The translations under genes were made by a program, and so were the position numbers. From the NCBI GenBank assembly GCA_051745165.1, contig JBNJDU010000005.1, positions 1-32,296 of the forward strand: DNA of 32,296 nt, written 5' to 3'. Source of the DNA: Patescibacteria group bacterium. GTDB lineage: Bacteria > Patescibacteriota > Minisyncoccia > Minisyncoccales > PWPS01. Of this stretch, positions 21,330 to 32,296 are shown piece after piece; position 1 is the stretch's first letter, and each line of letters begins with the position of its first letter. Under the pieces are notes generated by a model, which saw only the letters and a list, made by a program, of their open reading frames with translations, ran no database searches and was not told the origin of the DNA.

Positions 21330-21358
21330 CCGAATCAGCACGGTCTTCATAATCCAAA

Positions 21359-21503
21359 GCGAAGATACTCTCTTTGAAGAAGTTCTCGGAGAGGATTTTG
21401 CATGGTCTTTTCGTTAGAAAAGAAAATCCTCGAGAGCACAGAGCCCGAATTCCCGCTGGGAATTCTTGAGGCTCGGTTCTTACAAAGGGGGTATCGAGCG
21501 CAC
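21359..21503 (+). repeat. Structured dispersed element, copy A
   Basis: Multi-stem fold that aligns with 25642-25784 and 30764-30900 with compensatory changes. Confidence 0.85.
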
Positions 21504-25641: not shown

Positions 25642-25784
25642 GTGAGGGATTGGGGTTGAAAGAAGTTCGCGGAGGCAATTTGGCACGGCCTCGGCTTCGC
25701 CGAGCAAATTGTCGAGCGCACAACCCCCGAATCGCCGCCGGCGATTCTTGAGGGGTGGTTCTTTCAACCCCAACCCGAGCGCAC
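25642..25784 (+). repeat. Structured dispersed element, copy B (preceded by a 5' fragment at ~25578-25618)
   Basis: GGATTGGGGTTGAAAGAA/TTCTTTCAACCCCAACCC closing stem with the same internal arms as copies A and C. Confidence 0.85.
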
Positions 25785-28298: not shown

Positions 28299-29363
28299 TT
28301 AACTTATATCTTTAACAAATTCTTTTAATACTTGATAGTACCTTTCTAAGTCTTCTTTGCTTATCCATTCATTTGGCCCATGATGGCCACCACCCTTGGG
28401 TTTAACGACTAAAGTTGGAATCTTTTTCGAAGCAAAGAATCGCGCATCAGAAGAACCGTGAGAAAAAGCGGTTCTTCTTTTTCTTCCATACCTATCTTTA
28501 GCAATTTGAAAAAACTTTTTAAAATATTTATTGTTTACATTCCACTTAAAGCTAGGGCCTGTGACTACTTTTTCTAGTTCAATGTAATCTTTTTTAATCG
28601 AATCAATATTTTTCATCACTTCTTCTACATTTGTTTCTGGAACAAATCTAATATCAACAAGAGCTTCGGCAAATTCGGGCACTTGATTTCCCGCTTTCCC
28701 GCTATGTATTTTAGTAAGTGTAGCTGTAGTTCTATAATTCTCATCAGTATCAGGATATAACTCTTTAAGATCATTAATAAATAAAAGCAATCTTTCGGCT
28801 GCATTTTTGCCTTGCCATGGCCTACTAGCATGAGCCGCCTTGCCTTGAGCTTTTAGTTTTAAGTGAATAACTCCTTTTGCACCTTCTTCTAATTCCCAAT
28901 TTGTTCTTCCGTCAGGTAAAAAACAAAAATCCCCGATATATCCTTTTTCTACTAAACTTCCAACTCCATTAAAACCACCCAGCTCTTCATCGCTAGTAAT
29001 CATTACTCCTAAATCAAGATTTGATAATTCATCTTTTAATTCTTTTAGAAGTTTTATATAGCAAGCAATAGCAAATTTCATGTCGTAAACTCCGCGCCCA
29101 ATATATTTTCCTTCTTTTTCTTTTAAGCTAAATAAATCTTCCGAGCCTGGCACCACATCAATATGCGCTTGCAAAAAAACTTTGGGTTTTTTGGTTTTTT
29201 TAGTCGTTAAAATTAAAGAAGAGAAATCTTCACTCTTTTCCCATTTTTTATATAACTGCAAATCAGAAAGTTCTTCTTCTACATATTCTAAAGCTTTCTT
29301 ATTCTCCTTTTTATCCTTAGAAACCGTTTTAAAGCCTATTAATTTTTCTAATATTTTTTTCAT
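28299..29363 (-). CDS. M20 family metallopeptidase/deacylase (ArgE/DapE-like)
   Basis: AHIDVVP, GRGVYDMK, DEELGG, GKAAHASRPWQGKNA, SSDARFF, HHGPNEW. Confidence 0.92.
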   Translation of the reverse strand: MKKILEKLIGFKTVSKDKKENKKALEYVEEELSDLQLYKKWEKSEDFSSLILTTKKTKKPKVFLQAHIDVVPGSEDLFSLKEKEGKYIGRGVYDMKFAIACYIKLLKELKDELSNLDLGVMITSDEELGGFNGVGSLVEKGYIGDFCFLPDGRTNWELEEGAKGVIHLKLKAQGKAAHASRPWQGKNAAERLLLFINDLKELYPDTDENYRTTATLTKIHSGKAGNQVPEFAEALVDIRFVPETNVEEVMKNIDSIKKDYIELEKVVTGPSFKWNVNNKYFKKFFQIAKDRYGRKRRTAFSHGSSDARFFASKKIPTLVVKPKGGGHHGPNEWISKEDLERYYQVLKEFVKDIS

Positions 29364-29391: not shown

Positions 29392-29421
29392 AAAAAAGAA
29401 AAGGGCCAATTTTTGGCCCTT
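29392..29421 (-). terminator. Intrinsic terminator after the ATP-grasp gene
   Basis: AAGGGCCAA/TTGGCCCTT stem followed on the minus strand by TTCTTTTTT. Confidence 0.7.
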
Positions 29422-29425
29422 ATTT

Positions 29426-30538
29426 TTATCCTTGTTCCATTATAGTTCCGGCAAAACCAGCTCCCTGACTAACATTTATCATTCCACGCTGCCAATAACT
29501 TTCATACTTTTCTACTCTGGCAATTGTATACAAATACTCTATATTACCATCTTCCACCCAAAAAGATGGATTTAAATCAAAACTATAAAATTCATCATTT
29601 ATCTTAATTTTGGGTAGCCATTTTGCCTTGCAAAGTCCGTAACTTCCTTGTTGAACCTTTTCTTTTAATACCTCTTCCCATTGTTTGTTACTAACTTTGC
29701 GGCCGAAAACAATCTCCTTTCCTCCGTGTCCACGCAGAGGTTTTAAAACATAATTATCTTTATTTAGTCCCTTAACTTTTGCTAAATCATCAACTGATTC
29801 CAAAATAAAATCATCCGCTGCTGGGTTTAAAACAAACCTTTTATTTCCAACATCTTCTTTAGACTCTCCAGGAATAGTATTAAAAACTAAAACTGAGTCA
29901 TTTTGTGCCTCTAAAAGCCACTTTTGAAAACGTTGAGGAAATTCACTAAACTTACCAAATCGAACATCACCCCAGCGATATAAAGGCGAGGGCCGATTAC
30001 GGACAATCTCATCTTTATCCATTGGAGTAACATTTAAAACCTGATTCATGTCTTCAAGATAGTCTGCGCCCCACTCTTCTTTTACCTTGCCCGAACCCCA
30101 AGCAAGATAAATTTTTTCAGTAGAAAAAGAATTCTTTATTCTTTTTGCTAATCTCTGTGTGGCTGAAGGTTGCATTTCACTTAGTTTAGGGAAGGCTTTG
30201 TGCTGAGCAGAAACTGCTGGAGCACATTCAGGAGTATGGACATTAGCTTCATAAACTCCACGAATAGAAAGCGACCCTAGATCATATTCATTTCCATTTG
30301 ATTGAGCAACCTCCCTGGTTAATCCAGGAATTAAATCAAAGCGAATATGACCAACAAAATGATCAGTCCGCACTTGATTCCAAATTCTATTCCAGGTTTG
30401 AGTGGCAAAATCAATTATTCTGTCTTTTTCTCGCTTAGAAATAGTAAAACTACCGTTTAGGACTCTAACCCTTTCACCTGCTAGAGAAAAATCATCATTT
30501 TCAGCAAAAACATTTTTACTTAAAAGAACAAGTTTCAT
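29426..30538 (-). CDS. Circularly permuted ATP-grasp amide ligase (glutathionylspermidine synthase-like / CP-ATPgrasp), paralog 1
   Basis: N-terminal RFD and YEAN..TPE, then GNK, VLKPLRGHGGKEIVFG, DLNPSF, ARV, INVSQGAG. Motif order matches circularly permuted ATP-grasps. Confidence 0.75.
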   Translation of the reverse strand: MKLVLLSKNVFAENDDFSLAGERVRVLNGSFTISKREKDRIIDFATQTWNRIWNQVRTDHFVGHIRFDLIPGLTREVAQSNGNEYDLGSLSIRGVYEANVHTPECAPAVSAQHKAFPKLSEMQPSATQRLAKRIKNSFSTEKIYLAWGSGKVKEEWGADYLEDMNQVLNVTPMDKDEIVRNRPSPLYRWGDVRFGKFSEFPQRFQKWLLEAQNDSVLVFNTIPGESKEDVGNKRFVLNPAADDFILESVDDLAKVKGLNKDNYVLKPLRGHGGKEIVFGRKVSNKQWEEVLKEKVQQGSYGLCKAKWLPKIKINDEFYSFDLNPSFWVEDGNIEYLYTIARVEKYESYWQRGMINVSQGAGFAGTIMEQG

Positions 30539-30610
30539 AATATCCCTCCTTTTTTATTTAGGGTTTTATCCCTATTTCTCTCTTCAAATAATTTAAAAAG
30601 AGAAATAGAA
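30520..30610. repeat. 91-bp direct repeat covering leader, SD and first 6 codons, copy 1
   Basis: Matches 32206-32296 with one mismatch. Confidence 0.95.
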
Positions 30611-30627
30611 ATAAAATTTATTGTAAA

Positions 30628-30747
30628 GGATTCTTCGGTCGTTTCACTTCCTCAGAATGACATACTTTTGTCATCCTGAGCGAAGCGAAGGATCTCATCT
30701 ATAACACTTTTCGAAGAGATTCTTCGGCCTACGGCCTCAGAATGACA
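30628..30747. repeat. Cluster of three alternating REP-like units (GATTCTTC...CTCAGAATGACA / TGTCATCCTGAG...GAAGGATC)
   Basis: Units at 30628-30662, 30669-30696 (inverted) and 30716-30747. Confidence 0.85.
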
Positions 30748-30763
30748 AGTAGAGCAACCTTTC

Positions 30764-30900
30764 GCGAGGGTTGTGGTGGGAAGAAGTCCGCGGAGGCGGT
30801 TTGGCATGTTCTTGATTTATCAAGAAAACCGCCGAGCGAACAAGACCCGAATCGTCGCTAGCGATTCTTGAGGTCTGGTTTTTCCCATCCACATCCGAGC
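30764..30900 (+). repeat. Structured dispersed element, copy C
   Basis: Same architecture as copies A and B with different stem sequences. Confidence 0.85.
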
Positions 30901-30932
30901 AAAAAGAAAACCTCCCGATCTCTCGGGAGGTT
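30901..30932 (-). terminator. Terminator (3:4 helix) of the Leu/Ile leader
   Basis: AACCTCCCGA-GAGA-TCGGGAGGTT followed by TTCTTTTT. Confidence 0.85.
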
Positions 30933-30954
30933 CCAAATTCTTTTTTATTTTAAA

Positions 30955-31041
30955 TTAGATTTTTGCAAACTGGAAACCTCCCGAATTTAGTTCGGTAAGA
31001 AGTAAAATAATAAGAATTAAATTTTCTCGGAAAGTTTCCAT
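30955..31041 (-). CDS. 28-aa Leu/Ile-rich leader peptide (or small hydrophobic peptide)
   Basis: METFRENLILIILLLTELNSGGFQFAKI, between a TTGACA-16-TATAAT promoter (31095-31068) and a terminator. Confidence 0.65.
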   Translation of the reverse strand: METFRENLILIILLLTELNSGGFQFAKI

Positions 31042-31111
31042 AAATATGTTCAATTTTTATTACTACTATTATATTTATAATTTTTTGTTTGTCAAGAAAA
31101 AAAGAGAGCTT

Positions 31112-32224
31112 TTAGCTCTCTTTAACTTCTTTTAACGTTCCTCCGTAGCCTCCTCCTTGAGCTACATTAATAGTTTTTCGAGAAAAGTAACTTTCCCAAG
31201 GTTCGACTCTGACTAGGCTATATAAATATGTCAGATCTTTTCCATTTGCAAAAAATGAAGGCAATAAGTCCATAGTAATAGACAAGTTGTTAACTTCTAT
31301 TTTAGGAAGTAATATTTTCTCAAAAATTCCATAATCTCCCTTTTTAGTTGCTTTTCTTAAAATTATTCTCCACTTATCTTTACTTACATCTTCTCCAAAT
31401 AAAATCCCCTTTCCGGAAGCTCCTCTCAACGGTTTTAAGACATAATTGTCCTTGTCAACGAGCATTGCTTTTTCCAACTTGTGATTGCTATTTAAGACAA
31501 TATCTTCCTCAGAAGCTAAAAGTTTTTTGTTGGCTATATCGGCATTTCTACTTTCTGGAATTGTATTTATCACTCTTGAATAATTATTTTGTGCCTTGTA
31601 GAGCCACTTCTGAAAATCATCACTATACTCATTAAATTCTCCTTTAAAATCAACATCTCCCCACCGCCACAAAGTAGAAGGGGGATTTTTTTGAGCATCT
31701 GCCCATTTATTTACTGATACATTCAAGCCATTAGCAGACAGTTCATCAAGAAAGGCACTGGCCCAACTGCTCTTAGCTAAATTAGAACCTCTAACCATCG
31801 TTAATTTGCTGTCATAAGTCTCTAATAGCTTTTTAGCTAGCTGTTTACCAGCAGAAGGAGTATAGCTACTAATTTCAGGAAACTTCCGTCTATAAAGCGC
31901 ATCACAAGCTACTCCCTCTGGGCTATGTGTGTTTACTTCGTAAATTCCTTTAATAGATATTTCTCCCAGTCTTATTTCTGATCCCTTTCGTCTCGCTTTA
32001 CCTTTGAACTTTGGAATAAAATCAAAGCGAACGTGCCCTTCAAAATAATCCATACCTGATTTCTCAAAAATATTTTTCCAAATATCTTCTGCCTTTTTTA
32101 TGACTTTCTTCTTTTCTTTCTTTGTTATTTCTAAATATCCTTGAAGAGCATTAATTTTTTGATCACCAACAGAAAAACCTTCTCTTTTCTCGAAAAGCTT
32201 ATCTTTTAAAAGAACAAGTTTCAT
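31112..32224 (-). CDS. Circularly permuted ATP-grasp amide ligase, paralog 2
   Basis: RFD, YEVNTHSPEG, ANK, VLKPLRGASGKGILFG, DLLPSF, VRV, INVAQGGG. Same length as, and colinear with, 29426-30538. Confidence 0.75.
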   Translation of the reverse strand: MKLVLLKDKLFEKREGFSVGDQKINALQGYLEITKKEKKKVIKKAEDIWKNIFEKSGMDYFEGHVRFDFIPKFKGKARRKGSEIRLGEISIKGIYEVNTHSPEGVACDALYRRKFPEISSYTPSAGKQLAKKLLETYDSKLTMVRGSNLAKSSWASAFLDELSANGLNVSVNKWADAQKNPPSTLWRWGDVDFKGEFNEYSDDFQKWLYKAQNNYSRVINTIPESRNADIANKKLLASEEDIVLNSNHKLEKAMLVDKDNYVLKPLRGASGKGILFGEDVSKDKWRIILRKATKKGDYGIFEKILLPKIEVNNLSITMDLLPSFFANGKDLTYLYSLVRVEPWESYFSRKTINVAQGGGYGGTLKEVKES

Positions 32225-32296
32225 AATATCCCTCCTTTTTTATTTAGGGTTTTATCCCTATTTCTCTCTTTAAATAATTTAAAAAGAGAAATAGAA
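32206..32296. repeat. 91-bp direct repeat, copy 2 (runs to the window edge)
   Basis: Matches 30520-30610 with one mismatch. Confidence 0.95.

Follow-up and report, generated by a model that had tools for sequence, protein, structure and literature searches.

A conserved leader-peptide attenuator with a Leu/Ile codon run is predicted upstream of an orphan ATP-grasp ligase gene in a patescibacterium

The window analysed here is an entire contig of 32.3 kb (JBNJDU010000005.1, 32,296 nucleotides (nt); hereafter C5) from a Patescibacteria group bacterium (assembly GCA_051745165.1), whose genome of 0.62 Mb has a G+C content of 33% and is distributed over 29 contigs. On the minus strand of this window, a short leader lies between two paralogous genes for orphan ATP-grasp ligases. 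We consider it highly likely that this leader is a conserved, ribosome-mediated transcription attenuator, whose leader peptide senses charged Leu/Ile (branched-chain) tRNA. The arrangement predicts that a shortage of Leu or Ile very probably turns on the downstream ligase gene (paralogue 2), and that a sister switch built on Phe codons very probably guards the neighbouring one (paralogue 1). All features of the locus given below are on the minus strand, and the coordinates are those of the window.

Results

The leader contains the elements of an attenuator

The leader starts with a sigma-70-type promoter (31068..31095), in which perfect -35 and -10 hexamers (12/12 matches to the consensus) are separated by a 16-nt spacer. 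Promoter-like hexamers are found at the equivalent position in related leader copies. Downstream lies an upstream open reading frame (uORF; 30955..31041) with an ATG start and 28 codons plus a stop codon, in which codons 8-15 form a run of eight consecutive Leu/Ile codons (30997..31020; 5 Leu and 3 Ile). A preliminary description of this DNA, made from the letters alone, had pointed to both the promoter and the uORF with its run, and they were confirmed, the uORF at 31041..30955 and the run at 31020..30997 in the direction of reading.

The leader RNA is composed of segments with alternative partners. Segment 1a (31027..31040), a distal anti-antiterminator, reaches into the start codon, and its partner is segment 2 (30971..30984), which is located within the uORF and is a near copy of the terminator 3' arm. 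Segment 2 has either 1a/1b or segment 3 (30923..30935) as its partner, and segment 3 is at the same time the 5' arm of the terminator. Segment 4, the terminator 3' arm (30906-30918), extends together with its U tract over 30896..30918 in a terminator scan. The resulting intrinsic terminator (30907..30934) possesses a 12-bp stem with 6 G-C pairs and a T run. A second anti-antiterminator, the proximal segment 1b (30991..30995), was absent from the preliminary description. Its pairing partner is the 5' end of segment 2, with which it makes a mini-hairpin of 5 bp. The distance from the end of the run to segment 2 is 11 nt (median 8 nt, range 1-21 among the copies described below), and the stop codon lies 16 nt beyond the core of segment 2 (3-22 nt among the copies). 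These distances agree with the footprint of a ribosome.

Masking the codon run converts the terminator into an antiterminator

The minimum free energy (MFE) structure of the free leader RNA combines 1a:2 with 3:4 at -43.8 kcal/mol (z = -3.35), and 0/200 shuffled sequences folded as stably. The 1a:2 hairpin, at -20.9 kcal/mol, forms as soon as segment 2 has been made without a ribosome. Constrained folds were then calculated, in which the stretch occupied by the ribosome was masked and the remainder refolded. When the mask extended 12 nt beyond codon 9 or codon 15, the MFE structure contained 2:3 (-30.1 and -27.5 kcal/mol, respectively) and the terminator was lost, and masking through the stop codon restored 3:4 (-20.3 kcal/mol). 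The alternative conformers, whose folding had been suggested earlier as a check, showed the antiterminator in place of the terminator precisely if the codon run was masked. Together with the terminator scan, these folds bear out the mutually exclusive 1:2, 2:3 and 3:4 pairings and the U tail that had been proposed.

The RNA chassis is conserved in relatives

To describe the leader in relatives, a covariance model was derived from 15 copies of the RNA chassis, extending from segment 1b to the terminator and built without the 2:3 pairs. The model gave 33 matches in 22 of the 28 genomes of the same family. Outside the family, 3 of the 147 genomes in a sample of the order matched at E <= 1e-4 under stricter filters. 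Weaker chassis matches with uORFs occur in genomes of other families of the order (G136, G035 and G108; loci L080, L081 and L082), and in one of these copies a Met-containing run stands before the gene of an unknown protein of 314 amino acids (aa). We inspected 32 of the 33 model matches and left out the match on contig 4 of G022, for which no locus was given. Leaders were present before homologous ligases, where the preliminary description had proposed to look for them, and an M-start uORF of 23-38 codons reaching into segment 2 was present in all 32 copies. In the best 8-codon window per copy, the number of hydrophobic codons has a median of 8 and never falls below 4. Such a uORF was found in 31/31 testable copies compared with 12% of mononucleotide shuffles, the copies being kin and hence not independent trials.

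The pairings are conserved as well. When 14 distinct sequences were aligned, 92.8% of the cells were paired in 3:4, 95.0% in 2:3, and 95.7% in 1b:2, and sliding one partner by 1-3 columns lowered pairing to 10-70% of the cells. On the model alignment of 31 distinct copies, the paired cells amounted to 331/361 for 3:4, 328/364 for 2:3, and 136/155 for 1b:2. These counts exclude three matches on the reverse strand, where the model had recognised terminator hairpins in the wrong direction, and eight rows that overlapping loci had duplicated were collapsed. A first whole-leader alignment with MAFFT misplaced segment 1 and was excluded from the counts, and an automatic per-copy MFE test for the terminator was too noisy, so that pair counts on the model alignment were used instead. 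The 2:3 duplex of each copy was also stronger than mismatched duplexes (-20.2 vs -18.0 kcal/mol), a value reached by 0/10000 permutations, although this overstates the result because the copies are kin. The duplex test is not circular, since the covariance model was built without the 2:3 pairs.

Of the 31 copies, 23 read the G-rich core of segment 2 in frame 2, and frames 1 and 0 are used by 4 copies each. Reading of the core in all three frames indicates that the RNA is conserved, not the peptide, and the conserved-looking part of the leader peptide is the part encoded by segments 1b and 2. This bears on two other explanations of the ORF that had been put forward earlier. One is a free-standing gene for a hydrophobic peptide, either type I toxin-like or a membrane micro-protein, in which 1:2 only hides the start codon. 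Its own consensus promoter and terminator, the hydrophobic core of the peptide, and the position of the start codon inside helix 1a:2 would suit such a gene. However, the hydrophobic stretch of ~8-10 residues is too short for a membrane span, the conserved part of the ORF is the one read in three frames, and segment 2 not only copies the terminator arm but also tracks it between genomes. No antisense promoter or partner RNA was seen at the locus, and matches to small-RNA families of Rfam were at chance level only. In addition, the Phe and Ile/Leu/Val classes of leaders follow the clade of the downstream gene, and the same leader precedes unrelated genes (see below). We therefore regard a toxin-like peptide as very unlikely.

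The other explanation, to which we give scarcely any credence, sees in the ORF product a precursor or scaffold for modification or extension by the flanking ATP-grasp ligases, in the manner of ribosomally synthesized and post-translationally modified peptides. Short ORFs do stand directly before ATP-grasp genes, and two modules of ORF and ligase are arranged in tandem. The three-frame constraint speaks against this role also, and the C-termini and the residues free of RNA constraint are not conserved. The same chassis precedes non-ligase genes, and the terminator that separates ORF and ligase would make their expression independent of each other. Moreover, the ligases have a glutathione-synthetase/GspS-like fold, whereas the known graspetide ligases belong, to our knowledge, to another branch of the ATP-grasp enzymes.

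Codon runs follow the clade of the downstream ligase

A genome search revealed a twin leader on contig C3 (C3:73535-73662, in the region C3:73400-73820), which matches the 3' two thirds of the leader with 92% identity. The twin is equipped with promoter-like hexamers of its own, carries an ORF of 29 codons with a Phe run (five Phe in the best 8-codon window), and is located directly after pheA, encoding prephenate dehydratase (NCBIfam PRK11898, 2.3e-57, below the cut-off). Contig C3 ends 160 nt past the terminator of the twin, in repeats, and contig C5 ends 72 nt before paralogue 1. The gene order in relatives is pheA, Phe leader, ligase 1, Ile/Leu/Val leader, ligase 2, and the gene of an M20 deacylase, from which we infer that the two contig ends join. 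The pheA gene appears to be an isolated gene of the aromatic pathway, as no CM_2 chorismate mutase was found in the genome at E <= 0.001.

A maximum-likelihood tree was calculated for 16 ligase genes, with a fragment on contig 37 of G022 left out. It contains a Phe-leader clade of 8 rows (support 93/91; 7 rows and 100/99 without the long G011 branch), and paralogue 1 of the present genome (G000) falls inside this clade. Phe or Phe/Tyr runs precede 7/7 genes of the Phe clade with readable upstream DNA, and Ile/Leu/Val runs precede 8/8 genes outside it, including the gene starting at 30538 (paralogue 2). Pure runs comprise six Phe in G001, seven Ile in G025, and six Val in G018. Elsewhere in the family the same chassis carries Val, Ile, or mixed hydrophobic runs. 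It also precedes non-ligase genes, for example those of a ~400-aa family and of LeuA_dimer-like proteins, and most of the other genes behind related leaders gave no Pfam family over the cut-off. A constant chassis with exchangeable runs would thus label the two orphan ligase paralogues as Phe-linked and Ile/Leu/Val-linked, respectively.

The ~400-aa family, for which there is no Pfam match, follows mixed-run leaders at L061 1729-2928, L065 188-1384, and L074 (in G018, G010, and G022), and the runs before it contain Met, Leu, Cys, Tyr, Val, Ile, and Trp. The small proteins at L059 943-1398 and L053 556-1086 (in G009 and G024) show sub-threshold likeness to the allosteric (Leu-binding) domain of LeuA and follow leaders with Ile/Leu runs. 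In G024, a winged-helix protein comes first.

The class-specific runs also help to judge whether the switch is real but set by an input other than stalling at Leu/Ile codons, such as general coupling of translation to transcription, recognition of the hydrophobic nascent chain, or a protein or small RNA binding to segment 2. In that case the codon run would be incidental or have a different role. The chassis shows only hydrophobic runs, and several of these mix Met, Cys, Tyr, Trp, Val, and Ile. A Shine-Dalgarno sequence is absent before the uORF, and 1a:2 and 2:3 are nearly isoenergetic, all of which could accommodate another input. Against it, Phe/aromatic versus Ile/Leu/Val runs track the ligase clade in every genome that has both, pure runs exist (G001, G025, and G018), and run, segment 2, and stop codon lie at distances that suit a ribosome footprint. 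We judge another input to be unlikely.

Proposed mechanism

In the attenuator that we favour, transcription would begin at the consensus promoter, and a ribosome would translate the 28-codon leader. With plentiful Leu- and Ile-tRNA, the ribosome would travel across segment 2 as far as the stop codon, 16 nt farther on, and mask this segment, the 3:4 terminator would form, and transcription would stop at about 30896. If no ribosome were loaded, 1a (and 1b) would sequester segment 2, and termination would follow likewise. A ribosome stalled on the eight Leu/Ile codons would cover 1a/1b and leave segment 2 free. Segment 2 could then pair with segment 3 before segment 4 is made, no terminator would form, and the antiterminated polymerase would read through into paralogue 2 and the M20 deacylase gene. 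The model predicts stalling, termination and read-through and, beyond the RNA, an action of the ligase on branched-chain amino acids. Ribosome-mediated attenuation, the logic already seen in the preliminary description, is supported by the masked folds, the conserved layout, the twin with its Phe run, and the terminator-ligase spacing in relatives.

Several observations weigh against this model. No Shine-Dalgarno sequence precedes the uORF, unlike the strong one before the ligase genes, so that we can only infer its translation, and some relatives look leaderless. The 2:3 pairing (-22.0 kcal/mol) is barely stronger than 1a:2 (-20.9 kcal/mol). When the RNA ends at segment 3, the unmasked MFE structure already contains 2:3, and the off state would hence depend on the kinetics or order of folding. 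Besides the kinship that inflates the permutation result, covariation is modest, with the observed scores reached by 6-66 of 500 column shuffles. Compensatory changes are sparse because the G-rich core hardly varies, and the flanks carry more signal than this core. Several relatives have mixed hydrophobic runs, which fit a sensor of one amino acid less well. In this genome, ~275 nt of repeats and a weak promoter-like site with 9/12 matches (30647..30620) lie between the terminator and paralogue 2, so that control may be partly bypassed. As the regulated genes have no known branched-chain link, the logic cannot be cross-checked against their function. Finally, the RNA data consist of contigs only, in which no transcript ends are seen.

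These contigs come from metatranscriptomes (four runs, X1-X4, of one salt-lake study) and match pieces of both ligase genes with 99-100% identity. The 99-100% matches within 29400-32296 of the window indicate that this organism or a near-identical strain was present in those libraries. One contig of ~95% likeness bridges the terminator (30762-30957), and the contigs show neither strand, ends, nor level. RNA-library contigs may include DNA, they were given no weight for or against termination, and parts of the locus that they leave uncovered mean nothing.

Locus layout

The minus-strand order of the locus is paralogue 1, its terminator, the leader promoter, the uORF, the leader terminator, repeats, the ligase 5' untranslated region (UTR), paralogue 2, and the M20 gene. 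Paralogue 1 (31112..32224; 370 aa), whose own leader would lie beyond the contig end, is followed by an intrinsic terminator with a 10-bp stem and a T run (31101..31123). Between the leader terminator and the ligase 5' UTR lies a cluster of dispersed repeats (30620..30895), copies of which are present on at least 10 other contigs. The cluster comprises two families of dispersed repeats (30620-30895), with further copies in the window at 21350-21471 and 25644-25780. The leader terminator is 361 nt from the start codon of paralogue 2 in this genome. This gap is 33-138 nt in other genera and reaches 230-430 nt only in genus g1 (G000, G006, and G007). Comparison of the sequences indicates that the repeat cluster is not part of the ancestral leader, because relatives outside g1 are without the insertion.

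The 74-nt ligase 5' UTR (30539..30612) is conserved and contains a strong hairpin, an A-rich stretch, and a strong Shine-Dalgarno sequence. The 71 nt before both ligase paralogues are 98.6% identical (30539-30612 vs 32226-32296), the proteins being just 40% identical. A hairpin of lineage-specific sequence occupies the same place before 16/16 genes of the ligase family. The near-identity of the two 5' UTRs may reflect concerted evolution or a second control element.

Paralogue 2 (29426..30538; 370 aa), the regulated gene, encodes a protein of glutathione-synthetase/GspS-like fold and is followed on the same strand by the gene of an M20 deacylase of the ArgE/DapE family (28299..29363; Pfam Peptidase_M20, 3e-31; NCBIfam DapE-ArgE, 1.3e-54, below the cut-off of the model). 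The M20 gene follows paralogue 2 also in G001, G026, G011, and G018, and it probably forms one operon with paralogue 2. A single class IV aminotransferase gene was found in the genome, on contig 11, and no class I/II aminotransferase at E <= 0.001. No leader-like ORF stands before the class IV gene in the ORF list, the upstream DNA itself not having been read.

The regulated ligases are ATP-grasp proteins at the level of fold

The ligase family is small. The ligase was found in 8 of the 61 related genomes searched, including the present one (G000), all of the same family and each with at least 2 copies. At E <= 1e-3, the family comprises 12 proteins in a 90%-identity library, and at E <= 1e-30 it comprises 58 clusters among 1.84 billion representatives. 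Neither paralogue reaches the cut-off of any Pfam family, the NCBIfam model of glutathione synthase scores only 13-15 bits on them, below its cut-off, and 6 of the 7 further family members scanned gave no family at E <= 0.001.

The AlphaFold (AF2) model of paralogue 2 has a predicted local distance difference test (pLDDT) score of 89.4. In a Foldseek search of the PDB, the best match was human glutathione synthetase (E 5.7e-11), and the yeast and plant enzymes were matched as well. Further matches were the GspS-like protein 3n6x, YgiC, YjfC, fungal Cp1B (9cjn), and 7uk8. There were 51 PDB matches at E <= 0.001, and all those listed belong to the glutathione-synthetase/GspS/circularly permuted branch, with TM-scores normalised to the query of 0.41-0.57 for most. 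Among the 20 of 102 profile hits that were scanned, the distant ones show GSP_synth or CP_ATPgrasp_2, and the family alignment contains invariant Arg, Asp, Glu, Asn, and Lys columns. The name ATP-grasp given earlier to the product of the 30538 gene is thus right at the level of the modelled fold and of profile neighbours. It does not extend to Pfam, where 0 families pass the cut-off, and the ligase family itself is without a model.

Discussion

The mechanism proposed here is classical, as in the enterobacterial ilv, leu, and phe leaders, and both the lineage and the regulon are new to the literature that we searched. Full-text searches of the literature, subscription journals aside, yielded no paper joining a leader peptide or attenuation with Patescibacteria, the Candidate Phyla Radiation (CPR), or Parcubacteria. 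In the picture that emerges, one RNA chassis with exchangeable runs guards genes of unknown function and not biosynthetic operons. This yields a prediction for an enzyme family without a Pfam model, namely that one paralogue handles Phe and the other branched-chain amino acids. A further suggestion is that bacteria with 0.6-Mb genomes, in which the searches revealed no T-box, nevertheless track the pools of individual aminoacyl-tRNAs. Genes by which these symbionts obtain hydrophobic amino acids could be sought through the regulon of such switches.

A broader reading, which we put forward tentatively and think somewhat less probable than its negation, takes the leaders as built-in labels of substrate specificity, Phe (aromatic) for one paralogue and Leu/Ile/Val for the other. 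Together with the M20 deacylase and pheA, the ligases might form a starvation-induced pathway for capture or salvage of hydrophobic amino acids, and the chassis might be a modular cassette that has spread to unrelated genes. If so, the pathway would be peculiar to ultra-small CPR bacteria unable to make these amino acids. Hydrolysis might follow an ATP-dependent N-acylation or the formation of dipeptides, on the pattern of the unexplained hmrA-ldmS pair considered below.

Comparison with known systems

At gathering scores, Rfam identified only tRNA in the window and no leader family. T-box riboswitches were considered as candidates and rejected, with no match to RF00230 in the window, nor in the whole genome at E <= 0.001. 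His_leader (RF00514) stayed below threshold (20.3 against a gathering score of 49).

The enterobacterial attenuators with branched-chain leader peptides are those of ilvGMEDA (ilvL), ilvBN (ivbL), and leu (leuL). Like them, the present leader combines a short peptide with a Leu/Ile/Val run, mutually exclusive 1:2, 2:3, and 3:4 pairings, and a terminator before the genes. In contrast, it has no sequence or profile relation to them, its host is of the CPR/Patescibacteria type with 0.62 Mb, and it precedes orphan ATP-grasp ligases and an M20 deacylase instead of biosynthetic genes. It also differs in having two anti-antiterminators (1a and 1b) and a uORF without a Shine-Dalgarno sequence.

The best sub-threshold Rfam match was Phe_leader (RF01859; pheL-pheA), at 30902-31028 on the minus strand (33 bits against a gathering score of 55, E 0.0013). 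The match covers the whole model, and the twin on C3 has a Phe run and adjoins pheA. However, the Phe leader here stands after pheA and before a ligase gene, whereas in enterobacteria it stands before pheA. With a score so far under the gathering threshold, the leader does not belong to the Phe_leader family.

For the regulated genes, two other systems are instructive. In Staphylococcus, the hmrA-ldmS operon encodes an M20 peptidase and an ATP-grasp L-Asp-L-Met ligase and is de-repressed under shortage of sulfur amino acids via an S-box riboswitch or CymR/CodY, its physiological role being described as still unclear (PMC9486568). On that account, both systems would join an ATP-grasp amino-acid ligase to an M20 hydrolase and be induced when their own amino acid is scarce, but they differ in the ATP-grasp branch, gene order, and sensing devices. 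Cp1B, an ATP-grasp enzyme of the fungal E-64 pathway (PDB 9cjn), ligates a dicarboxylic acid to the amino group of a hydrophobic L-amino acid, namely Ile, Leu, Val, Met, Phe, Trp, or Tyr (PMC12568646). It is the sole solved protein below E 1e-3 for the family profile (E 6.8e-5), and it is among the top fold matches (E 1.7e-9). It differs in having ~11% identity in the fold alignment, 517 vs 370 residues, and a eukaryotic secondary-metabolite context. The amino acids accepted by Cp1B are the residues of the leader runs. The proposed link of the ligase targets to Leu/Ile rests on the leader and on this analogy with Cp1B and LdmS.

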